From positions 2,141 through 66,140 of the forward strand of contig CAZSAL010000010.1 of assembly GCA_964604825.1 (NCBI GenBank): a DNA stretch of 64,000 nt, given 5' to 3'. The position numbers were made by a program, and so were the translations under genes. The DNA comes from an uncultured Elusimicrobia bacterium. GTDB taxonomy: Bacteria; Elusimicrobiota; Elusimicrobia; 2-01-FULL-59-12. The notes beneath the pieces were generated by a model that searched no databases, was not told the origin of the DNA, and worked only from the letters and a program-made list of their open reading frames with translations. Positions 1-10,663 of the stretch are shown here, in pieces; the stretch's first letter is position 1; the number at the start of each line of letters is the position of its first letter.

Positions 1-175
1 TCTCAAATTGAGCCAAGGATTTACATGATCCGGGGAAAGCAAGTAATGCTGAGTTCAACACTGGCTGAACTTTACAGAGTTCCTGTTGGAGTCCTTAATC
101 AGGCGGTAAAAAGAAACATATTCCGATTTCCACCGGAGCTTTTGGGTTCAGCTGAACCCCATTGAAGTTACAAAC

Positions 176-499
176 TTGAAATCACAAAATGTGATTTCAA
201 GTTGGGGCGGCGTTCGAAGGGGATTGCCTTATGCGTTTACGGAACATGGAATTGTGATGGTGTCGAGCGTTCTGCGAAGCAGGCATGCCATTGAAGTCAA
301 CATTGCTGTTGTGCGAGCTTTCGTTAAGCTGCGGCATGCACTCGAAGTTCGAAAGGATCTGAACATAAGAGTCGAGAGACTTGAAGGGAAGATCAACTTG
401 GTCGAAACCGATGTGCGCCAGATCCGAAATGCTGTCCAGCACATGAAAAGAATTCCGGAAAAGACCGGCCCAACAGTGAAAGGGTTTGAGAAGGAGTAG
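176..499 (+). CDS. ORF6N-domain protein, C-terminal segment. It is the downstream frame of a gene that starts before the window and shifts frame near 139-142.
   Basis: Frame-2 translation (TTG start) ...KSQNVISSWGGVRRGLPYAFTEHGIVMVSSVL... matches the conserved ORF6N/KilA-N-like core (SSWGG..LPYAFTEQG). Frame 1 of bases 1-165 encodes the N-terminal ORF6N part (IRGKQVMLSSTLAELYRVPVGVLNQAVKRNIFRFPPE) and ends at TGA 163-165. Confidence 0.55.
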   Translation: MKSQNVISSWGGVRRGLPYAFTEHGIVMVSSVLRSRHAIEVNIAVVRAFVKLRHALEVRKDLNIRVERLEGKINLVETDVRQIRNAVQHMKRIPEKTGPTVKGFEKE

Positions 500-529
500 C
501 CGCCGCCAACGAGGGCAGAACACTTATAT

Positions 530-1015
530 TTATCCAACCCGAATAATACCTAAATGTTTGCGGATAAATTTCAGGATGCACCAATTGAATCCATTATCAT
601 GAATAACTTTATGGAATGCTTCATAAACCGGGTGGGGATGATCCGCCGTCATTTCATCCATCCGGCGGCCTGGATCCACATCGTGGACCAGGATGAATCC
701 GCCCGGCTTAACCATCGGCAACCCACTTTGAATATCCTTAAGCGCCCCTTCATAAGTGTGATCCCCATCAACGAGATAAATATCAACCTCCCGAGGATAC
801 TCTTCTGCTAACCGCTGGACCAAAACCGCAGAGTTTCCGTTCAGCAATTGGACTATCTTATTGTGGCCGCCTATTCGCTGCAAGTTTTTCATTGTAACGA
901 TAGGATATGTGTTCGCTGAATAGGTGTCATTATCTATACAAATCAATCTCCCCTTCTCATTATCAACGATGGCTTTTGCCCAACCAATTGCCGTACCGCC
1001 GGCGTACGTTCCCAA
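530..1015 (-). CDS. class I SAM-dependent methyltransferase (Methyltransf_24/CmcI-like), TTG start, possibly N-terminally truncated
   Basis: Motif I-like GTYAGGTAIGWA, acidic LVDGDH and VKPGGFILVHDV fit the Rossmann SAM-methyltransferase fold. The ORF is bounded by a stop immediately upstream of the TTG, and it is about 40 aa shorter than typical family members. Confidence 0.55.
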   Translation of the reverse strand: MGTYAGGTAIGWAKAIVDNEKGRLICIDNDTYSANTYPIVTMKNLQRIGGHNKIVQLLNGNSAVLVQRLAEEYPREVDIYLVDGDHTYEGALKDIQSGLPMVKPGGFILVHDVDPGRRMDEMTADHPHPVYEAFHKVIHDNGFNWCILKFIRKHLGIIRVG

Positions 1016-1198
1016 TCAAGCGATCCAATCATCGGTGGGTGCGGAAGGATTCGGGCACATACATTTGTAGCGCTCTGCTTTGTCTGGGTGTTGTTACCCA
1101 AGATACTGGAGCCAACACTCTTGCTGATGTCCCACCCCAGTCCGGCTCCCGTCCTGAAACGGCCAGCAGGTGGGCATAAGCAGAGAACGGCTGACCTT

Positions 1199-2245
1199 TC
1201 AATTTCTTGCTTGCGTATATTTTTTTGAAAGATTAAGCAGGTGCGCTCCAGAGGCCTTGGCCATTTTGACGGCAACTGCATTTCCAATTTGCATCGCTAT
1301 TCGAGTAATAGATGAACCATAAAAAACGTAGTCGTCATCAAAACTCTGGAGCGCCGCCGCTTCCCTCAAAGATATTGCTCGATTTTGTTCCGGATGCCCA
1401 TACCTGCCATTAGAAATACTCCAACATTTGCACGTCAGCGCTGGCGCTGGTTTTCCCCAAGGGAGTCTCCCATACACATCCGTATGTCCGAGGTATTTTT
1501 TATGACACTCTAAACGCAACTCTGCAGGCCATGCAAACCGATTTCCGCCATCGGAAGGAGTGTTACGTAGTCTCCGAAAATTCGTTTTGGAAATTGATGC
1601 GGCCCGATGGTTTGGGATATTTAAATGTGACTCGCCCGCCTTAATGGGAGGATATTTTCTGATAGCGTCTTTAACAGTAACAAAGTCTCTGAGTTTAGGG
1701 CCATGCGTTGGTTCGGGCGGAGTAGGCTGGAATAATCTGGACGCGATTAAGATCAATCGTCGGCGAGTTTGCGGGACCCCGTAATGTTTTGCATCCAGAA
1801 TATTAATGGACACCTTATATCCTCTTGTCGTAAGCTCTTTTTCAAAACGACGAAATGCACTAAATCCTTTGACTTTCAAAATTCCCGGCACATTTTCGAC
1901 TAAGATATGTGCTGGTTTGAACGTGCGAACAAATTTTTGCACCTGCCCTAGCAGACTCTTTAAATGATGGTTGGAAAATTCGCGTCGCTGCTTAGTAAAC
2001 GGCTGGCAGGGTGCGCATGCGGCAAAGAGCAACTCGTCCTTATTTATCCCTTTCAAAAAAGGTCTCAGTTCTCTGGGCTTGAGCTTCCGAATGTCTTTGC
2101 AAAGGAATCGGGCTGGCGAGTTATTTTTCTCATATGTTTCCTGGCAACTTTCGTCCGAGTCTATCCCTAAGATAACATTAACGTTGGCATCCAAAAGGCC
2201 GCGAGTTAAGCCGCCGCCGCCGCAAAAGAAATCTACCGCTATCAT
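1199..2245 (-). CDS. DNA (cytosine-5)-methyltransferase
   Basis: Motif I IAVDFFCGGGG, PC motif IV APCQPFT, ENV motif VI ILVENVPG, and QTRRRLILIA. The ATG at 2245-2243 overlaps the stop of the upstream REC gene (ATGA), so the coupled start is preferred over the longer 2290 start. Confidence 0.85.
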   Translation of the reverse strand: MIAVDFFCGGGGLTRGLLDANVNVILGIDSDESCQETYEKNNSPARFLCKDIRKLKPRELRPFLKGINKDELLFAACAPCQPFTKQRREFSNHHLKSLLGQVQKFVRTFKPAHILVENVPGILKVKGFSAFRRFEKELTTRGYKVSINILDAKHYGVPQTRRRLILIASRLFQPTPPEPTHGPKLRDFVTVKDAIRKYPPIKAGESHLNIPNHRAASISKTNFRRLRNTPSDGGNRFAWPAELRLECHKKYLGHTDVYGRLPWGKPAPALTCKCWSISNGRYGHPEQNRAISLREAAALQSFDDDYVFYGSSITRIAMQIGNAVAVKMAKASGAHLLNLSKKYTQARN

Positions 2246-3396
2246 GATGTTCGGTTTGCCACCGTGTACGTCCAAATATCTGTTAACCATTGGTCAGTAT
2301 TGGTTTCTGGCAATCCGGGCCTTCCCACAATTTGCAGATAGGCCCAAACAATCTGTTCCCGAAATGGGCTGTCAATCGAAAGAAGGCGCTTAAATTTATT
2401 AGTAGGAACAGTGTCCTTGAATGAGATGTCCCCGATAGGAATCTGCAACAGTGACCGGACATTTACGGCTAGGGGTGGCATGATCGAAGGATATTCAGGC
2501 AATAATACATACCCGGCGAACTGAGTCTGCGTAATATGAGACGCCAATCTTTTGCGAAAATCACTTTCCGATGTTGTGGAAGTAACGCCACACTTTTTAG
2601 CGTACTCGTTTAAGTTCTCGCACCTCGCAACTAATATTTCGGCAGCACGACAAGAACCATCCTCACGAATAGCCATGTCGCAAGAGGGTGTAAGCACAAG
2701 AAAATATGCGGTTGCTGACTCCTTTGGCTGCCCCGCTTCAAAAAGAATATCGCCAGTTAATAGGCTCGCCTCAAGCGGTGGATATATGAATTGTTCCCAG
2801 GATATTAATTTCTCCGATGTGCGGGAAGTGTCCATATCCATCAGAGCCCCCATACGTCTTCGAGCAGTTCTGAGGAGCATCTTACTGCGCAAGGCTTCAT
2901 CGCTCTGCGCATCCCAAATGTTTTGACATGTTGTGCGCAAAATCTGTTGCGTCACCCCCGCAAATTCATCGCGAATATTGTTCAACGCCCCAATGTGTGG
3001 TAAGAATTCCTCCAAGGCTGCGACAACATTTTGATCGCTGGATTTACTTTTCGTGATAACTTTTACGAATGGATGATTTGGAGGGATACGAGGGCCAAGT
3101 TCCGCTTCCCCTGCCGTGTAAATTATTACAGGCGAAAAATGTTTCTCCCAAACGTCTTTCCATATTAATTCTCCATGCTTCTTACTATGTTGTGCAGGAT
3201 TACCTTGATACAGATCAAGCACAATAACATCAGGACGAGACGACGAAAGGTCAGATACACCTTTAGTAAAATCGCTTTCAATAGTAACGTCGGCCACAGA
3301 GGGTGGCCACTTCTCATTTATAGATTGTTTAACAACTTCGGCATGCTCTTTCTCGTCGTCGATTATGAGTATCCTAAAGGGGGTCTTTACAGGCAT
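2242..3396 (-). CDS. response-regulator receiver (REC) domain protein with a ~250-aa C-terminal domain that could not be assigned. Candidate effector of a defence two-component module.
   Basis: N-terminal CheY-like fold with acid pocket IIDDE (D13/D14), predicted phospho-acceptor D61 in VIVLDLYQG, T/S in IIYTAG, and K in VKVITKSK. The C-terminal 130-384 has no motif I could assign (contains LTPSCDMAIREDGSCRAAEILVARCENL). It lies 14 nt downstream of the kinase gene and is translationally coupled to the methyltransferase downstream. Confidence 0.75.
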   Translation of the reverse strand: MPVKTPFRILIIDDEKEHAEVVKQSINEKWPPSVADVTIESDFTKGVSDLSSSRPDVIVLDLYQGNPAQHSKKHGELIWKDVWEKHFSPVIIYTAGEAELGPRIPPNHPFVKVITKSKSSDQNVVAALEEFLPHIGALNNIRDEFAGVTQQILRTTCQNIWDAQSDEALRSKMLLRTARRRMGALMDMDTSRTSEKLISWEQFIYPPLEASLLTGDILFEAGQPKESATAYFLVLTPSCDMAIREDGSCRAAEILVARCENLNEYAKKCGVTSTTSESDFRKRLASHITQTQFAGYVLLPEYPSIMPPLAVNVRSLLQIPIGDISFKDTVPTNKFKRLLSIDSPFREQIVWAYLQIVGRPGLPETNTDQWLTDIWTYTVANRTS

Positions 3397-3409
3397 ATTA
3401 ATACCAGTC

Positions 3410-5533
3410 CTATCGTTTCAGAGGAATGTCAAAACCAAAGCTAGCGCCACCCAATTCGCCAGGCTGAATCAAATGCATTTTCCCGTCATATTGTGCGACT
3501 AATTCAGATGCGACGGTGAGACCCATGCCAATGCCATCCGGCTTCTTAGTGACCCCCGGCCAGAAAATCCGTTCTTCGTCTTCATGATCTATTCCAGGTC
3601 CTGAATCGTGAACTTTAATATAGAGTCGTTCTCCGTCAGATATTTTTTTAGCTCCCACTTTGATTTGGCGTTTATCTGGACCCACTTCTGATAACCAGTA
3701 AATTGCATTTGTTAGCAAATTCACGAGAATGGTTGATAGGTCGGCTGGATCAATTGCAACGATTTGAGCGGGGAATTCTTTCATACTAAGGCTGATTTTC
3801 AATTTATCTATATCCGGTTGATTCATAGCGACACATTCTTCCATGATGGTCTTTGCATCGCAATTCCGGAGTTGCTTACTTTGACTTCGATTGGCCAATG
3901 GCGCAAATGTGTTCGCTAAGTGTTCCAAAGTGTCAACTGCATGCTCAGCTAACCGAATATTTTTTTCATACGGCTTGAGAGCCTCGCTTTGATCTTCAAT
4001 GGCTTTTAGAAGCAATCGATTCAACTTGCTGATTGCGAGCAATTGATTCCTGACTTCATGAACGATAGTCGCAGCCATTATCCCAAGGCTTGCCAGACGA
4101 CTGTAATAAACAAGCCTCTTCTCAATTTGCTTGATTACTTGTTCCTGTTCGGCGGCAAACCGTTGAACAGCAGATACTAATTCTGCTGGCCCGTTCTTTT
4201 CTTTTGAAATTCGCTCAATTGTTTCCACCATTTCGCGAGGAGACAGATTCGAAAACAAATCTTTAAATGGCGGCTCCTTGTGCTTGGCTCCTTGACGGTC
4301 AGAATCTCGTTCTCGTTCAAGAACAGGGAATAATCGCGTTTTGAAAATTTCGCAGAATTGGCGAAATGCCTGATTATCTTCAAGTCTTTCTCGATCACTG
4401 GTGTCTTTAAGACGACGATTCTTATCCGCAGATATGGCGATATACCCAATAATCTGGTTTGTGCTCAGACGCACACCAACCCGACTAACTCGACGAAGAT
4501 CGATTCCCATCCAGTCGATCGCCGATCCAGATTTAGGAAGGACTAAAATTCCATCGCGGTAAAGAGAGATCCCTGACTGGGCTTTTATCGTGTCGCGAAC
4601 ATCCTTTCTGTCTAGATGGAGTTCTCCACTAAGATCTTCGAGCTCGCCAAGTGCGATATCCCAAACTCTTAATTCAAATTCAAATGGTCCACATATGAGA
4701 TCCTTTTTCCTGCGCTGAATTGGATCAGATGACGTAGTCAAGACATCCAAAGTGAATGGGACACTCCTTTTCTTCACTCGTCTACTGAAACAATATTCGG
4801 CGATTATCTTACCCGAATCATCAACCTTACCCTTTAACAAATAAGGTGGGTTCTCCAAGAATGCAGGAGGATTAATTTCAAGAGGGATGGAGCCTCCTTC
4901 GGGCAATGTTAGCCGTATTGAAAAGTTGTCCAATTGACGGAATGGTGGGATTAGCCTTGCTAGACACTCGCGCAAATTAGCAAATTCGTCTTGATCCCAT
5001 TCAGTCTTTAGATCAATAATGCGCAAAATTGTACCCGTGGAAGAAAATGGGCTCTCCTCAACCTCATCTACCCTTATCTTATACGAGTCGATATCTTCAG
5101 CGCTCTCCAGCGTGTCCCAGCTAACGTTAAATCTGAAGCAAGGACTGGCCTGTGCTTTCGTTATTACTTCAATTTCCTTTCCCAAACGAGCGGAGGACAA
5201 TCTGCCCAATCCCTTTTCTCCAGAGACACGTCTTTTCATCGCGCCTGACTTCATAAATGGCATCTTAAGGCGATACGGTGTGGCCACCACTGCCCAAACA
5301 TCCTGGATAATTTCTCGCGTCATCCCAGTTCCGTTATCTTCTATTTCGACCGCCATTGTCCCGGAGGTATTCCGAATGAACCGAACATCCACGCGTGTAG
5401 CTAAAGCATCGTAGGAATTCTTGACGAGTTCCATGATTGCGACGATATCACTGGTTACCAAATCCGCTCCTAGCGCCGCAAAGACACGAGGATGCATCCT
5501 GAATGTGACCTGGTTGTTAATTGGAGTGTTCAT
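3410..5533 (-). CDS. cytoplasmic sensor histidine kinase with an N-terminal MORC/HATPase_c_3-like GHKL ATPase domain (GHKL - linker - HisKA - HATPase_c)
   Basis: N-terminus: Bergerat N-box ELVKNSYDA, G1 EDNGTGM and G2 GEKGLGRLS, which is the HATPase_c_3/MORC type. C-terminus: H-box ATIVHEVRNQLLAI, N-box LLTNAIYW, HDSGPGID and GIGMGLTVA, a classic histidine kinase catalytic core. I found no hydrophobic TM stretch. Local GC is lower than in the core genes. Confidence 0.75.
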   Translation of the reverse strand: MNTPINNQVTFRMHPRVFAALGADLVTSDIVAIMELVKNSYDALATRVDVRFIRNTSGTMAVEIEDNGTGMTREIIQDVWAVVATPYRLKMPFMKSGAMKRRVSGEKGLGRLSSARLGKEIEVITKAQASPCFRFNVSWDTLESAEDIDSYKIRVDEVEESPFSSTGTILRIIDLKTEWDQDEFANLRECLARLIPPFRQLDNFSIRLTLPEGGSIPLEINPPAFLENPPYLLKGKVDDSGKIIAEYCFSRRVKKRSVPFTLDVLTTSSDPIQRRKKDLICGPFEFELRVWDIALGELEDLSGELHLDRKDVRDTIKAQSGISLYRDGILVLPKSGSAIDWMGIDLRRVSRVGVRLSTNQIIGYIAISADKNRRLKDTSDRERLEDNQAFRQFCEIFKTRLFPVLERERDSDRQGAKHKEPPFKDLFSNLSPREMVETIERISKEKNGPAELVSAVQRFAAEQEQVIKQIEKRLVYYSRLASLGIMAATIVHEVRNQLLAISKLNRLLLKAIEDQSEALKPYEKNIRLAEHAVDTLEHLANTFAPLANRSQSKQLRNCDAKTIMEECVAMNQPDIDKLKISLSMKEFPAQIVAIDPADLSTILVNLLTNAIYWLSEVGPDKRQIKVGAKKISDGERLYIKVHDSGPGIDHEDEERIFWPGVTKKPDGIGMGLTVASELVAQYDGKMHLIQPGELGGASFGFDIPLKR

Positions 5534-5633
5534 GCTTTTTGGTAAAGGACCTCATTTTGTAATTTTTCGAAGCTCCGAGTGCTCCATTTTTTGGAGGACG
5601 TCGCGCAGGTACGGTTTCCCCGCCCCAATCTTC

Positions 5634-6050
5634 TCAGACTAACCTTTTACGAATCCGACTCATAACCATTTCGGGATTTTTCTTTATATCATGTTCCCAT
5701 ATTCGAATCACATGCCATCCATTCCGCCTCAACTTGGCACTGACTCTTCGATCTCGTCTTCTATTTGTCCGTAATTTTTCAGCCCAGTAAACGCTATTGC
5801 TAGCTGGTTTTAGGTTCCTGCGACATTTCGTGCAGCCATGCCAAAAACATCCATCAATGAAAACCGCTAATTTTGCCCCCGGAAATGCAATATCTGGCCG
5901 ACCAGGCAATTTCGAAAGATGGCGCCGCCACCCCACGATTCTGTGACGTCTTAACATGCTGACAATCACGCGCTCAGTGGATTGGTTATTTCGGCCTTTT
6001 ATTAAAGCCATCACAGCAGAACGCTTGGCTCGGGTGAAAATATCCGCCAT
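5634..6050 (-). CDS. vsr: very short patch repair endonuclease (Vsr)
   Basis: DIAFPGAKLAVFIDGCFWHGC...WHVIRIWEHD is the Vsr signature (FxDGCFWH, catalytic D, C-terminal H). It sits next to C5-methyltransferase genes, as expected for a T/G mismatch repair partner. Confidence 0.85.
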   Translation of the reverse strand: MADIFTRAKRSAVMALIKGRNNQSTERVIVSMLRRHRIVGWRRHLSKLPGRPDIAFPGAKLAVFIDGCFWHGCTKCRRNLKPASNSVYWAEKLRTNRRRDRRVSAKLRRNGWHVIRIWEHDIKKNPEMVMSRIRKRLV

Positions 6051-6058
6051 GCTCTAAC

Positions 6059-7174
6059 CTACGGTACGACGATATAGCTTGCCGGTCGGCGACGCACCAA
6101 TAGATTGATCAGTTTTTTCAGTGGCGGGCAGACCGGGCTCCTTACCATATCTTCGAAACTAGGTTTCGTTTTGCCGTCCTTCGGAGCGGCGGAAATAGGC
6201 CCCGAATACAATTTCCCTTCAACTAAATCGATAACGTCTTTCGGCTTTCTAAAACTTTCGGCGTAGGAGAAACTGAGGAGATTTACTTCCGACGTTATCT
6301 CGGACAGGAATTTATAAACATCAAGAGCTGTTGTAGCGCTGATATATTTGACGAGCACGTCTTGAACTATCCAGATCGTTTTGCCGCCCCAAGCGATCCC
6401 CACCTCGGATTTCACAATAAGTTGGCTGACCATACGTGCCCAGACCTGCCGATAATTTATGCCCGGAGCGCTGTGCTCTCGGCCTAAAATCGCATCCTCA
6501 AAGGCCATAGGGATCGTCGTCCGTTTTGTCTTGTTGCCGCCAGAAGTACTGGACGTCATTATCTCTATAACGGCCGGTATCCCTACCGGCGCATCGTCGA
6601 CGAAATAGGCGTTACCTCGTTTAGCGATGGTGTAACCCTCTCTTTCAAAATGAGGTTTTAGAAATCCCCATTTCTCACCAGTTGAATTTTCGATCTCTTC
6701 CTGGCTGGAGACACCGAGAGGCATCAATATGTAGTCGAATGTATAATCAAAGGCTTTCTCAACACCATTGATCTTCTCGACATATTTAAGTTTAACTTCG
6801 GGCCAAATGCCCAGCCGTGTGCCGGATTCGTATCCGCATAAACTCAAGACCTTGTCCTCAACTTGGCGTTGATGGGCACGCCTTTCCGCGCTATCTCTCC
6901 CAAGAGCCAGGAGGCGACGTGGGCATACGATCCAAGGCGCATCGTCTTCGCGCATTTGAAGCGAACAAACGCCGGAGCAGACTTTCTCCTTACCAGTACC
7001 GAAAAATCGTTCAAGCGCTTTATTGCCTGATATGACTACATCGGAGAGGTATCTATTACCCCCACCGTCGCACTCTCGGTTCATGAAAGGACAGAGAGCC
7101 GATTGTCGATTACGAGTGGCTTCTTTGGAAGTATCTGCTACTGGATATCCGTAGAGTTCGAATATTTTTGCCAA
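6059..7174 (-). CDS. putative type II restriction endonuclease, NotI-family-like, with a Cys-rich N-terminal metal-binding cluster
   Basis: The N-terminus has ALCPFMNRECDGG...VCSGVC...IVCPRR. This Cys4-type cluster and the FELYGYPV lead-in are reminiscent of NotI-like enzymes. It lies between a C5-methyltransferase and vsr, in an operon with an ATGA-style overlap. The assignment is from memory of the family, not a search. Confidence 0.5.
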   Translation of the reverse strand: MAKIFELYGYPVADTSKEATRNRQSALCPFMNRECDGGGNRYLSDVVISGNKALERFFGTGKEKVCSGVCSLQMREDDAPWIVCPRRLLALGRDSAERRAHQRQVEDKVLSLCGYESGTRLGIWPEVKLKYVEKINGVEKAFDYTFDYILMPLGVSSQEEIENSTGEKWGFLKPHFEREGYTIAKRGNAYFVDDAPVGIPAVIEIMTSSTSGGNKTKRTTIPMAFEDAILGREHSAPGINYRQVWARMVSQLIVKSEVGIAWGGKTIWIVQDVLVKYISATTALDVYKFLSEITSEVNLLSFSYAESFRKPKDVIDLVEGKLYSGPISAAPKDGKTKPSFEDMVRSPVCPPLKKLINLLVRRRPASYIVVP

Positions 7175-8346
7175 TTAGGTGTTCCCAAGATCGCGAGGGC
7201 TATCGCCTTCGCAACAGGCGGCGGAACCGAGTTAGCAACTTGACGGTGCTGGTCAAGCTCGCGTACGCTGCCTGATCTTCCCCGGATAGGTCCTTTCAAA
7301 TGATAGTCATCTGGGTATCCATGCAATCTCATGTATTCCCGAGGAGTCAAATATCGATCTTCTGTTGGATGGAAGAAAATCTCACCACAACGAAGCGTCA
7401 AGGATGGTTGTTTCCTAGATAGCCGACGAAATTTCGTCGTATCTTTTTTGGATAGTCTTCCCCGCTGTTTTGCCGGAAGATGATGTTGGGCGGATAGATG
7501 ACCTCCTTCTGGTACTCCACGAATGCGCTTATAGTCCCCGTCAGGCGTGATATCGACGTGACTATCCGCAAATTGCGCCCCGTCAGATTTTCGTCTAGGC
7601 TTAGGCAATCCAGCCAGGACCCGCCCAGCCGTGACGAAGGGAGGAAGGGGAAATAGAGTCATCTCGGTTTCGGGGTCCGCATGGGTTGGGGAAGGAAAAA
7701 CGAAACCGTTCGGCTTAGGAATAGCGACGGTAATGACACGTTGACGTAGTTGAGGCACTCCGTACTCCGCGGCATTTACCACTTTCCATTTCGGGACATA
7801 TCCCAAGCTCGAGATTTCCCCCAAAAACATTTCGAATACTCCACCAGGCTTTCCGGTATGATCCGGCGCATTGAGCAATCCCTTAACTTGCTCTACGATG
7901 AGGGCTTTTGGTCTAAGGACCTTTGCGAATCTGGCAATCTGAAACAACAGCATGCCTCGTTCGTCGCTCAAGCTCTCACGTTTGCCAATCTGAGAAAAAG
8001 CCTGGCAGGGCGGACCTCCAAAAAGCAAATCAAGCTCCCCAATTTTTAAGCCCAACTCTTTCATGAGATTCTCAGGATCAATCGTTCGAATATCCGCTTG
8101 GATCACCTTCGTCTTTGGGCTCTTTTTTAAGAACGAGGACCTCAACGTTTCGCAACAGTTGGGGTCCATTTCTATGCAAGTCAATATCTCGAACCCGGCT
8201 TGATGAACACCGAGGTCCATGCCACCCGCTCCTGAAAATAGCGAGATTGCCGTATATGAGGTTTTGGGGTTCTTTCGAATTGTCTTTAAGATAGGGTCTG
8301 CTGTCGCGAAAGTCATATCATTCCTCCAAGGATTATATATAGGCAA
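7138..8346 (-). CDS. DNA (cytosine-5)-methyltransferase
   Basis: Motif I ISLFSGAGGMDLG, PCQ motif IV LLFGGPPCQAFSQIGKRE, motif VI ALIVEQVKGLL and motif VIII QLRQRVITVA, with a large variable target-recognition region. Confidence 0.85.
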   Translation of the reverse strand: MPIYNPWRNDMTFATADPILKTIRKNPKTSYTAISLFSGAGGMDLGVHQAGFEILTCIEMDPNCCETLRSSFLKKSPKTKVIQADIRTIDPENLMKELGLKIGELDLLFGGPPCQAFSQIGKRESLSDERGMLLFQIARFAKVLRPKALIVEQVKGLLNAPDHTGKPGGVFEMFLGEISSLGYVPKWKVVNAAEYGVPQLRQRVITVAIPKPNGFVFPSPTHADPETEMTLFPLPPFVTAGRVLAGLPKPRRKSDGAQFADSHVDITPDGDYKRIRGVPEGGHLSAQHHLPAKQRGRLSKKDTTKFRRLSRKQPSLTLRCGEIFFHPTEDRYLTPREYMRLHGYPDDYHLKGPIRGRSGSVRELDQHRQVANSVPPPVAKAIALAILGTPNWQKYSNSTDIQ

Positions 8347-8563
8347 GTAGCGTCCGTTAAGAGCTTTCTGCCCAGAGACACCAAAGACTTCTTATATATT
8401 AGAGTCGAAAAGCCGAAAAATATTCATTTACTGACGGAAAAGCACGGTTCAGGTGGGTCCTCAAGCAGACGGTCGGTTTCGAAATATAAAACGAGGGAAG
8501 AGGACTCAAAACCTCGGATGGGTTCGCCCTTTCCGTTTTCTGAACACGTTGGGGATGGGGAAC

Positions 8564-8758: not shown

Positions 8759-8808
8759 TGGATGACCTCCTACTAGATAGCATTACGACTATTTCAAGAA
8801 AAATAAAA

Positions 8809-8895
8809 CGGAGGGAGAGGGATTCGAACCCCCGGTACCCTTTCGGGTACAAACGATTTCAAGTCGTTCGCTTTCGACCACTCAGCCATCCCTCC
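8809..8895 (-). tRNA. tRNA-Ser (anticodon TGA)
   Basis: The reverse complement reads GGAGGGATGGCTGAGTGGTCGAAAGCGAACGACTTGAAATCGTTTGTACCCGAAAGGGTACCGGGGGTTCGAATCCCTCTCCCTCCG. It has a 7-bp acceptor stem, anticodon stem AACGA/TCGTT with loop CTTGAAA giving anticodon UGA, a long variable arm (Ser type), a GTTCGAATC T-loop and discriminator G. CCA is not encoded. Confidence 0.85.
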
Positions 8896-9020
8896 AAAAA
8901 TTTGTTTACAACTCCATGCAGCCGACTTTACAGCCACATCGTACAAAAGCGTAAAACTCGGTATCACTCCGTTTCACTTCTCTGAATGAACAGGTGCGGC
9001 AGCTTCGGCCTTTCATTTAC

Positions 9021-9060
9021 CTTCAAGTCGTCCGCTTTCAACCGTTCCCAACCTCCAAAA
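9021..9060. repeat. degenerate duplicate of the tRNA-Ser 5' half plus 5 nt of its flank (about 80% identical)
   Basis: ttcaagtcgtccgctttcaaccgttcccaacctccaaaa aligns with ttcaagtcgttcgctttcgaccactcagccatccctccaaaaa at 8862-8900. Confidence 0.4.
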
Positions 9061-9065
9061 TCATT

Positions 9066-10214
9066 TTATCCAAGGCGCAGACCTGGGATCTGTTTTAATC
9101 CGATGGCGGTGACGCGTTCCGACAATGGAAATGAATGATCCCCCGGATAGACGATCCACAAATGCGAGAGACGGAGGTCCTTTAAGACCACATGAATCGA
9201 TTTCGTGAGACGCGGGGTCTCGGACACTTTAAACTCGAATCCCCATCGGCGGCTTCCCCGCGGCACAAAAAGATCCAGTTCCGCGCCGGCATGCGTCGCC
9301 CAGAAATAGACATCGCGTTCGCCGACAATCTTGAGAATCTGCTCGATGGCGAATCCCTCCCATGATGCGCCCAGCTTCGGATGCGCCTGAAGGTCCCGCC
9401 AAAGAGAAAACCTCATCAGGCTGTGGAACAACCCCGAATCCCGGATATAAATCTTGGGCGCCTTGACGACCCTTTTCCCCATATTCTCGTGCCACGGCGC
9501 CAATTGCCGAACCATGAAGGCGCCGCTCAATAAATCCAGGTAATCCCGAGTCGTCGTATGGGCCAGGCCCAGAGAGGCCGCGATCTCCGACGCATTCCAA
9601 ACCTGTCCATGATAATGAGCCAACATGCTCCAGAATCGACGCAGTTTTCCCGCCGGAATCCGAATGCCCAGACGGGGAATGTCACGCTCAAGAAAAGTGC
9701 GGATAAAATCGTCCCGCCACTGGAGGCTTTGGGACTCCGCCCGCGCCAGGAAAGACCCTGGAAATCCTCCCCGCAACCAGAGCTTTTGTTGGGCGCCCGG
9801 CCCCACCTCGTCCAGCGTAAATCCTCCCATATCTACAAAATGGATCCGTCCGGCCAGAGATTCCGAGGCGCCGCGCACCAGGTCAGGAGAAGCGCTCCCC
9901 AAAAGTAAAAACCGAGAGCGTCTGGGTCTGCGGTCCGCCAGCCCGCGGAGGACGCCGAAGATGTCAGGGCGAAGCGGAACTTCATCGAGGATGACAAGCC
10001 CCCGGAGCCCTTCCAGCGCCGTTCGGGGGTTTTGCAGCCGAGCATCATCGGCCGGATTCTCAAGATCGAAATAATGGCTTGCTTGACCCCGGGCGGCCTG
10101 TCGGGAGAGGGTGGTCTTCCCGCTTTGACGCGGGCCCAGGAGCGCCGTCACTGGATAATGATGGAGTCCCTGAGAGAGCCGGCGTGACAGCCGGGAGCGT
10201 GGGATAAGCGGCAT
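9066..10214 (-). CDS. AAA+ ATPase of the AAA_14/DUF4143 family
   Basis: Walker A GPRQSGKTTL, Walker B-like VILDEV, and the characteristic C-terminal DUF4143-like region (FWATHAGAELDLFV...). Confidence 0.7.
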   Translation of the reverse strand: MPLIPRSRLSRRLSQGLHHYPVTALLGPRQSGKTTLSRQAARGQASHYFDLENPADDARLQNPRTALEGLRGLVILDEVPLRPDIFGVLRGLADRRPRRSRFLLLGSASPDLVRGASESLAGRIHFVDMGGFTLDEVGPGAQQKLWLRGGFPGSFLARAESQSLQWRDDFIRTFLERDIPRLGIRIPAGKLRRFWSMLAHYHGQVWNASEIAASLGLAHTTTRDYLDLLSGAFMVRQLAPWHENMGKRVVKAPKIYIRDSGLFHSLMRFSLWRDLQAHPKLGASWEGFAIEQILKIVGERDVYFWATHAGAELDLFVPRGSRRWGFEFKVSETPRLTKSIHVVLKDLRLSHLWIVYPGDHSFPLSERVTAIGLKQIPGLRLG

Positions 10215-10381
10215 GGGGAGATTCTAGAAAACTGAGCCCATGGTAATCAAATTTCAAGGAAGATGCCGGGGACATGAACCCCCTGTTTTTTTGGCGTTCC
10301 GGCTTCGGTGCAGCGATGGTTTTGGGCCCGCTAAAATTGAGCCCGGGGGCTCTCCGCAACGTCAGTTTAATTTTATTCCAT

Positions 10382-10663
10382 TCACTGCTGTTTATCGTAC
10401 TGCTCTTCGATAATCTTCAGAGACCCGGTGACAGAGGCATTTTCGCTAGGCAGACAAATGACGCGATCTTTTCCATACTCGCTGCGTAAAACAGTAAGCA
10501 CTTCATCCAGCCAGGAAGGACCCACGGCAAGAACACCGCTGAAGTCGAGCTCAATTCGGTCGCCCGGCTGCGGTTTGAAATAAGCTTTGATAGCCAGTCC
10601 GGCTTCCCGACCCGAAGGCCTGGACGTCAGGATTTCTCCAAACTTTCTCACTTCAACTTTCAC
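10382..10663 (-). CDS. STAS-like DUF4325 family protein
   Basis: A ~90-aa protein (ELDFSGVLAVGPSWLDEVL) of the type that follows HATPase-type ATP-binding proteins. It overlaps the upstream gene by 4 nt. Confidence 0.55.
   Translation of the reverse strand: MKVEVRKFGEILTSRPSGREAGLAIKAYFKPQPGDRIELDFSGVLAVGPSWLDEVLTVLRSEYGKDRVICLPSENASVTGSLKIIEEQYDKQQ

Follow-up and report, generated by a model that had tools for sequence, protein, structure and literature searches.

A receiver protein with a predicted MazF/CcdB-fold output region in a methylase-linked histidine kinase operon of an uncultured Elusimicrobia bacterium

In Detocs, which combines a histidine kinase bearing a TPR sensor (DtcA), a stand-alone receiver (DtcB) and a receiver joined to an effector (DtcC), experiments established that the kinase and the receiver-fused effector form an abortive-infection system whose toxin is activated by phosphorylation and which needs DtcB (bioRxiv 10.1101/2023.01.24.525353); the effector domain is interchangeable between systems. 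A second group of two-component proteins appears in Bellieny-Rabelo et al. 2021 (PMC8011034), where the part of the paper devoted to them describes HATPase_c_3 kinases (HEF_HK, PF19191) and Response_reg_2 proteins (PF19192) beside C5 methylases and Vsr, proposes that they form a regulatory two-component-like system, and leaves the C-terminal half of the response-regulator-like proteins unassigned. Here we analyze a locus resembling both, in a 64,000-nucleotide stretch of DNA from an uncultured Elusimicrobia bacterium (assembly GCA_964604825.1, contig CAZSAL010000010.1, positions 2,141 to 66,140 of the forward strand; the whole stretch is called the window). The gene in question is REC-X (2242..3396, stop codon 2242-2244; coordinates in the window are on the minus strand unless marked otherwise), a 384-residue open reading frame (ORF) for a receiver with a fused output region predicted to adopt the MazF/CcdB fold. 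A reading made from the sequence alone had singled out 2242-3015, which corresponds to residues 128-384 of REC-X and the stop codon, as a candidate new effector fold.

The likeness to Detocs lies in a histidine kinase paired with a regulator whose DNA-binding output has given way to an effector, which kills the cell in Detocs and may do so in REC-X. An assignment of the cassette to Detocs was nonetheless rejected, as it has no stand-alone receiver of the DtcB type, its kinase senses through a paraMORC GHKL ATPase (HATPase_c_3) and not through TPR repeats, and a C5 methylase is its obligatory partner, with Vsr as a frequent further one. The candidate effector also differs, having a MazF fold rather than PNP, and no PADLOC defence-system model matches the cassette. 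With the HEF_HK/Response_reg_2 pair, as presented in that part of the 2021 paper, the locus shares a kinase made of HATPase_c_3, DHp and HATPase_c, an adjacent regulator-like gene and the linkage to C5 methylase and Vsr genes, whereas the DHp here is weakly HisKA-like and the receiver lies nearer to the canonical PF00072. PF19192 matched neither REC-X of the window nor 109 relatives, PF19191 did not match the window kinase even at E<=10, and the plasmid-borne distant homologues described below matched neither model. Since both Pfam models failed, membership of PF19192/PF19191 was rejected, and we place the REC-X family as a sister lineage of HEF_HK/Response_reg_2 and not as a member.

The passages on MORC and paraMORC ATPases in Iyer et al. 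2008 (PMC2292703) link these proteins to restriction-modification (R-M) systems, methylases and Vsr, and a search for the term in that paper gave no mention of receivers; a paraMORC3 GHKL-nuclease fusion (VcSduA, Shedu) is proven anti-phage defence in Vibrio cholerae (PMC12137116). What our locus would share with VcSduA and with BbrUII/HgiDII, as GHKL (paraMORC)-nuclease enzymes, is a MORC-like GHKL ATPase presumed to recognize or act on DNA and to keep a destructive effector under control, as well as the association with methylase and Vsr genes. In those proteins the nuclease is fused straight to the ATPase, whereas here a DHp-CA module and a separate receiver protein stand between the two, and the effector is no PD-(D/E)xK nuclease. 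Compared with a type II R-M system, the methylase is present, but Pfam and PADLOC detected no nuclease domain in the kinase or REC-X, and no conserved nuclease gene occurs in the 83 family loci compared below. An RNA-cutting suicide effector tied to an R-M system is exemplified by PrrC, the anticodon nuclease associated with the type I system EcoprrI; the concept is the same and the proteins are unrelated. PrrC involves no phosphorelay and is restrained by binding the R-M enzyme.

The output region of REC-X

When REC-X was modelled with AlphaFold2 from the family alignment, the full protein reached a predicted local distance difference test score (pLDDT) of 94.0 and a predicted template modelling score (pTM) of 0.84, and residues 120-384 alone had a mean pLDDT of 90.8. 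In the model, a helical hairpin (residues 121-186, helices 121-163 and 167-186; 2839..3036) leads into a β-barrel of the MazF/Kid/CcdB fold (residues 187-357, β-rich core ~199-357; 2326..2838), which is followed by a C-terminal tail (residues 358-384; 2245..2325) consisting of an R359-P-G-x-P363 motif, with R359, P360 and P363 invariant, and a terminal helix (367-383). The end of the hairpin is marked by the conserved residues R179-R180-R181 and D187, of which R180 is invariant and the others are conserved in at least 90% of the family. The predicted barrel is SH3-like with the strand and helix topology of MazF: its elements run S1-S2-H1-S3-(insert)-S4-S5/6-S7-H2, which is the MazF order plus an insert. 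This insert, a family-specific helical insertion between S3 and S4 (residues 262-292, helices 262-268 and 277-288; 2521..2613), has no MazF counterpart in our own mapping of the secondary structure elements, MazF toxins being ~105-120 residues in total.

The C-terminal model alone was used as the Foldseek query, to keep receiver matches from dominating. Against all PDB chains, the top 50 matches listed were MazF or CcdB without exception (probability 0.99-1.00), and against BFVD, which holds predicted viral structures, the top 10 were named "PemK-like protein" or "Endoribonuclease". Across three independent structure libraries the top matches were solely MazF, PemK or CcdB, with strong scores. 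On the strength of the model, residues 121-384 are thus very probably a helical hairpin joined to a toxin barrel of the MazF/CcdB type. As the top structural matches are confined to these families, the C-terminal region is not the new fold that the sequence-only reading had proposed; nor are its relatives the benign DNA-binding output domains which that reading had named as the outcome that would count against a toxic effector, since they are classical toxins.

Sequence searches by themselves gave no assignment, in line with the earlier statement that no recognizable output motif follows the receiver: neither Pfam, NCBIfam and PADLOC nor a sequence search of the PDB (phmmer/hmmsearch) gave any match to residues ~120-384 of REC-X and of 108 relatives. 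The REC-X family is not in Pfam. The region is a genuine conserved domain, as a profile of residues 120-384 recovered 1096 cluster representatives at E<=1e-3, 296 of them at E<=1e-30, from 1.84 billion representatives searched, and the best 150 of the 1096 were all of REC-X architecture or fragments of it. Invariant in the 109 sequences of the family are R180, W200, P206, D216, C239, D240, P300, D342, P344, R346, E347, W351, R359, P360 and P363, and the window copy retains all 17 invariant family residues. Conservation reaches further than this family alignment, because E201, Y203, P206, G215-D216, (T)P(S)C-D, R337, S340, P344-F345 and R359-x-G-x-P are kept throughout the superfamily. The most conserved motif of the superfamily is T236-P237-S238-C239-D240 (2677..2691), at the end of S2 and the start of H1, in which C239 and D240 are invariant in the 109 sequences; it is retained as TPSCD in distant Campylobacter homologues and appears as NPACD in those of Enterobacter. 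This motif belongs to the patch that had been quoted as conserved-looking Cys and acidic residues, LTPSCDMAIREDGSCRAAEILVARCENL (residues 235-262), and the claim held for part of it: T236, P237, S238, C239, D240 and C259 are invariant or nearly so, whereas E245, D246 and C249 between them vary. A zinc site was considered and judged unlikely, with only two conserved Cys and no conserved His.

The likeness between REC-X and MazF is at the level of the fold only. The best local profile alignment to MazF had an E value of 0.15 and is not significant, and its register is the same as that of the strand-order mapping. In this tentative register, G215-D216 coincides with the GD/GE motif of MazF, and REC-X has in common with MazF, PemK (Kid) and CcdB that strand 1 opens with a GD motif; R232 is placed over the Arg that belongs to the "RP" motif of MazF and is catalytic there (EcMazF R29, BsMazF R25); and D240 falls on a conserved MazF Asp (D33 of BsMazF/MazF6), eight residues after the Arg in both families, so that most REC-X members would reproduce the MazF Arg-Asp spacing. 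By spacing alone, C259 would correspond to the catalytic Thr of MazF (EcMazF T52, BsMazF T48). Position 232 is Arg in 95 of the 109 members (87%) and position 259 is Cys in 108 (99%). Judged from these residues, many family members may keep a MazF-like site, with Cys in place of the catalytic Thr; it is not universal and is missing in the window copy, which does not have the Arg. REC-X departs from MazF in further respects, as its barrel is fused to a receiver and a hairpin and not a stand-alone protein of ~110 residues, contains the 30-residue helical insertion and the extra C-terminal helix, and has no antitoxin gene beside it in the 83 loci.

Receiver, kinase and conserved operon

The receiver half of REC-X (CheY-like, residues 1-120; 3037..3396) is divergent yet complete. 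As a single sequence it matched PF00072 at E 0.0013, under the Pfam cut-off, but 93 of the 109 family members match PF00072, the 109-member profile matches solved receivers (YycF) at E 2e-10, and the AlphaFold2 model has the (βα)5 pattern of secondary structure. The receiver residues D13, D14, D61, T94 and K116 are all present. D61, the phospho-acceptor (codon 3214-3216), is invariant in the 109 members, D14 and K116 are conserved in at least 90% and T94 in at least 70%, and position 13 is Asp in the window copy and Glu in most relatives. The receiver claimed by the sequence-only reading from the same Asp, Thr and Lys residues is therefore real, and the phosphorelay between the kinase and REC-X looks intact, judged by the conserved residues. 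A word-indexed search found 294 full-length REC-X homologues. REC-X (P0001), its nearest relative P0002 and many others carry the name "CTP synthase" in JGI/IMG; none of the searches supported this name, which thus looks like a propagated mis-annotation.

The cognate kinase (3410..5533), identified by Pfam, NCBIfam and synteny, has 707 residues and is probably cytoplasmic. At its N terminus lies a paraMORC-type GHKL ATPase (residues 13-206; 4916-5497) that matches HATPase_c_3 at E 2e-19 and the BbrUII/HgiDII restriction-enzyme N terminus of NCBIfam at E 3e-23, the latter under the cut-off (82 vs 550 bits). The C-terminal 240 residues form an ordinary DHp plus CA core, with an AtoS-like NCBIfam match at E 1e-31: the CA domain (residues 595-706; 3416-3751) matches HATPase_c at E 4e-22, and the DHp contains H492-E493 (H492 codon 4058-4060), with a weak Pfam HisKA signal (E 0.02-0.2). 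Conserved in 75 kinase orthologues are the motifs of both ATP-binding domains, including the N, G1 and G2 boxes, H492-E493, and a long middle block at ~320-385. For the HEF_HK kinases, the corresponding part of the 2021 paper (PMC8011034) reports no predicted transmembrane segment.

Directly upstream of the kinase is a Vsr very-short-patch repair endonuclease (5634..6050; PF03852, E 1e-18), and downstream of REC-X is a C5 DNA cytosine methyltransferase (1199..2245, longest ORF to 2290; PF00145, E 1e-49; 348 residues in the public gene call). The likely start codon of the methylase, ATG at 2243-2245, overlaps the REC-X stop codon as ATGA, in agreement with the public gene call and as in the closest relative. 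For a comparison across genomes, a motif-seeded scan with one genome per species gave 155 relatives, the best 80 of which were fetched and combined with three earlier contigs into 83 loci. These come from more than ten phyla, among them Planctomycetota, Acidobacteriota, Chloroflexota, Nitrospirota, Verrucomicrobiota, Desulfobacterota and Bacteroidota. A homologous kinase lies immediately upstream of REC-X in 82 of the 83 loci; the C5 methylase comes right after REC-X in 67 and lies on the upstream side of the kinase in a further 12, with some C5 methylase in 82; and Vsr is found at most 4.5 kb away in 49 loci, often immediately upstream of the kinase.

When the ORFs of 100 residues or more around REC-X were clustered all against all, the same picture emerged, with REC-X in 83 loci, the kinase in 82, the C5 methylase in 82 and Vsr in 53 (over a slightly wider range than in the count above), and the next real family in at most 7. 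The remaining large clusters consist of short ORFs; the examples listed for them fall within the kinase and REC-X genes, for the most part in antisense orientation, and we therefore took these clusters to be shadow ORFs. The clustering showed no conserved antitoxin (MazE/PemI/CcdA), separate nuclease or stand-alone receiver (DtcB-like) in the 83 loci. The operon is therefore compact, in the order (Vsr) - paraMORC histidine kinase - REC-MazF-like protein - C5 methyltransferase, and with no other recurring gene REC-X is the sole candidate for the effector of the cassette.

A comparison with sister cassettes on plasmids (L088 4607-9776, L090 4995-9771 and L087 4685-9554) provides the main comparative argument about the output region. 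In Burkholderia sp. IDO3 and Klebsiella variicola, the cassette consists of an N6 methylase, a paraMORC kinase, a small receiver-like protein and a separate effector gene, which is an MBL-fold hydrolase in Burkholderia and has a weak HNH match in Klebsiella. In Pseudanabaena, genes for a kinase, a small protein and an MBL-fold protein occur together, with no methylase in the stretch viewed. These cassettes suggest that two-component systems linked to methylases form a wider, modular class, and because they carry the effector as a separate gene, the fused MazF-like domain of REC-X would occupy the effector slot.

Function of the output region

We consider the best explanation of these results to be that residues 121-384 are the fused effector of a response regulator in a methylation-linked kinase operon, an explanation to which we give about an even chance, and that the domain acts as the phospho-activated toxin effector of this module, for which the balance is even or tips slightly in favor. 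The suggestion that REC-X carries its effector where Detocs carries a toxic one accordingly gains support, by inference from structural relatives that are toxins only and from the lack of any other candidate effector in the conserved operon. The surroundings of the loci, among genes for defence or mobility, speak for it as well, as do the precedents of Detocs and of the paraMORC3 fusion. The cassette looks like an uncharacterized module for immunity or addiction, in which DNA methylation is coupled to a toxin under phosphorelay control.

We hypothesize that the soluble kinase would monitor DNA through its MORC-like ATPase and middle region. Its signal would most plausibly be sites left unmodified by the partner methylase, because the DNA is foreign or because the methylase has been lost, and methylation of the host DNA would keep the system silent. 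Upon signal, the kinase would autophosphorylate H492 and pass the phosphate to D61, and phosphorylation might reorganize or dimerize the receiver and hairpin, so that the MazF-like module is released or assembled. Dimerization is a probable activation step, because active sites and grooves in the MazF family form at the dimer interface. The released module would be a growth-arresting toxin whose most likely activity is the binding and cutting of single-stranded RNA, as in the characterized MazF/Kid toxins; by analogy with these, RNA cleavage is put forward tentatively for REC-X, at less than even odds. The Vsr protein would repair T:G mismatches caused by 5-methylcytosine.

If this model is true, the operon encodes a receiver-controlled MazF-fold toxin with no antitoxin gene, and joins R-M, two-component signalling and effectors of the toxin-antitoxin type, themes usually studied separately. 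It would also suggest a testable role for the output region in a class of proteins encoded beside C5 methylases in many phyla, a region left unassigned in the part of the 2021 survey that deals with such proteins. A bolder version, which we regard as speculative though not far-fetched, is a new immune or addiction system in which C5 self-marking is read by a MORC-like ATPase-kinase and the alarm is carried by a His-Asp relay, with no direct cutting; its effectors would be new MazF-fold toxins with a center of their own (E201, D216, C239-D240), whose chemistry or target may be unlike those of MazF and CcdB.

Several observations weigh against a phospho-activated, MazF-like toxin. None of the 109 members matched PF02452 (PemK_toxin) or PF01845 (CcdB), both of which are also absent among the 25 families listed at E<=1, and hhalign gave the barrel core a probability below 1%, which is not significant, both with 4 MazF sequences and with 124. 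The comparison with the 4 MazF/Kid seeds was not significant whether or not the 262-292 insertion was removed, and phmmer with MazF seeds found no match over all fetched REC-X loci, so that REC-X shares no detectable sequence-profile similarity with MazF or CcdB. The MazF homologue search returned almost only near-identical Bacillaceae NdoA, and the MazF profile is consequently shallow. As for the active site, the putative catalytic Arg is replaced by F232 in the window copy and by S232 in P0002, the distant Campylobacter and Enterobacter branches have neither R232 nor C259, and the residues kept superfamily-wide (E201, Y203, D216, C239-D240 and R359) have no known counterpart in MazF catalysis. 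With R232 absent, the classical MazF RNase mechanism is doubtful for the window copy. Furthermore, what the kinase senses is purely inferred, and no report of a receiver-MazF fusion was found in the literature.

The same active-site pattern bears on an alternative that we rate as rather unlikely, namely a toxin domain with an activity other than that of an RNase. It might poison a protein target such as DNA gyrase, like CcdB, or possess a new center at C239-D240, D216 and E201; with a center of the latter kind it could cleave DNA and serve as the true restriction arm of a system that depends on methylation. Superfamily-wide conservation extends to the C-D dyad and several acidic residues but not to the equivalents of the MazF Arg and Thr, the operon resembles an R-M system with no recognizable nuclease, HNH or MBL nucleases hold the same position in the sister cassettes, and MazF has been crystallized with single-stranded DNA bound (PDB entries among the matches). 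CcdB, however, binds GyrA via its C-terminal residues, and the C terminus of REC-X, with its RPGxP motif and extra terminal helix, is unlike that of CcdB. We know of no MazF-fold protein that hydrolyses DNA, which also counts against this explanation, and D240 lines up with a conserved MazF Asp that is taken as structural.

A non-toxic, regulatory output is unlikely. The barrel would then bind nucleic acid or protein, and the relay would tune the methylase, Vsr repair or the neighboring R-M genes in the manner of a controller protein. The translational coupling of REC-X to the methylase is consistent with such a role, as is the absence from the window copy of the family-conserved R232, R365 and E317, and a regulatory role was suggested for the related two-component pair in the relevant part of the 2021 paper (PMC8011034). 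Against this, every structural relative found is a toxin and none is a transcription factor, Pfam detected no helix-turn-helix or other DNA-binding domain in REC-X and its relatives, nucleases and not regulators hold the equivalent position in the sister cassettes, and defence islands and plasmids are where the loci are found.

The losses just mentioned also bear on whether the window copy is decaying or inactivated, with its fold kept and its activity lost, which we think improbable. REC-X departs from the family at four conserved charged positions (R219F, R232F, E317L and R365T), and fragments of genes occur in the island around it (the remnant with ORF6N and the short ORF of Methyltransf_24 type described below). 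On the other hand, the ORF is full-length and has kept all its invariant residues, and the kinase, methylase and Vsr genes and the ATGA coupling are intact. Since P0002, which is 62% identical and departs at the same four positions, stands in an intact operon, the substitutions argue for a viable sub-lineage rather than decay; they represent either such a sub-lineage with altered activity or an early loss of function. Finally, that the C-terminal 250 residues form a fold with no known relative is most improbable: the lack of sequence matches in Pfam, NCBIfam, PADLOC and the PDB and the absence of MazF counterparts for the hairpin, the 262-292 insertion and the terminal helix would speak for it, but the fold searches, which returned MazF/PemK/CcdB only as top matches in three libraries, contradict it.

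Distant homologues and genomic surroundings

Distant full-length homologues of REC-X (22-24% identity) are found on plasmids of cultured bacteria, next to the same type of kinase and dcm, with hhalign probabilities of 97.7% for Enterobacter and 98.6% for Campylobacter. The carriers are Acaryochloris marina pREB1, Bacillus sp. H8-1, 39 conjugative plasmids of Campylobacter jejuni/coli/armoricus and an Enterobacter mori plasmid; for the last of these the gene table is incomplete and dcm is unlisted. The presence of such homologues on Campylobacter, Acaryochloris, Bacillus and Enterobacter plasmids makes experiments feasible in cultured hosts, and in Campylobacter, a food-borne pathogen, the maintenance of plasmids or resistance to phages may be influenced by the system. 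The Campylobacter plasmids (p14991B of C. jejuni and 38 similar ones) are ~50-75 kb in size and carry a distant kinase/REC-MazF-like pair; on p14991B (L085 1-4454) a convergent dcm lies beside HicAB and a DUF4435/AAA pair. No match turned up when complete E. coli genomes were searched by blastn with the Enterobacter cassette. Viral contigs almost never carry the REC-X cassette, which occurs in 2 of 2.9 million.

In the window, the gene row continues upstream of Vsr with a 371-residue ORF (6059-7174), which overlaps a second C5 methyltransferase (7138-8346). The ORF matches no Pfam family and has a weak PADLOC match to REase_II (E 3e-4), and the two genes are probably a conventional type II R-M pair. 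A homologous pair of ORF and methylase also occurs near the cassette in locus L074. Just past the gene row is a tRNA-Ser(TGA) gene (8808-8896). The guanine-plus-cytosine fraction is 0.43-0.50 over positions 1-8500 (0.52 at 7501-8000), 0.54-0.59 over 9001-10500 and 0.45-0.56 thereafter, and it seems that a genomic island has inserted beside the tRNA-Ser gene and contains the cassette. Downstream of the cassette are a 161-residue Methyltransf_24 ORF (530-1015) and an ORF6N remnant on the plus strand (176-499), followed on the public contig by a gene with a Fic domain; this assortment resembles an island in which defence genes and mobile genes are mixed. In an Acidobacteriota contig (L001 1-14620), the cassette is surrounded by genes for a helicase, MZB and GmrSD and by a pair of SIR2_2 and STAND-NTPase genes, a typical defence island, and AbiJ is among the neighbors at other loci.

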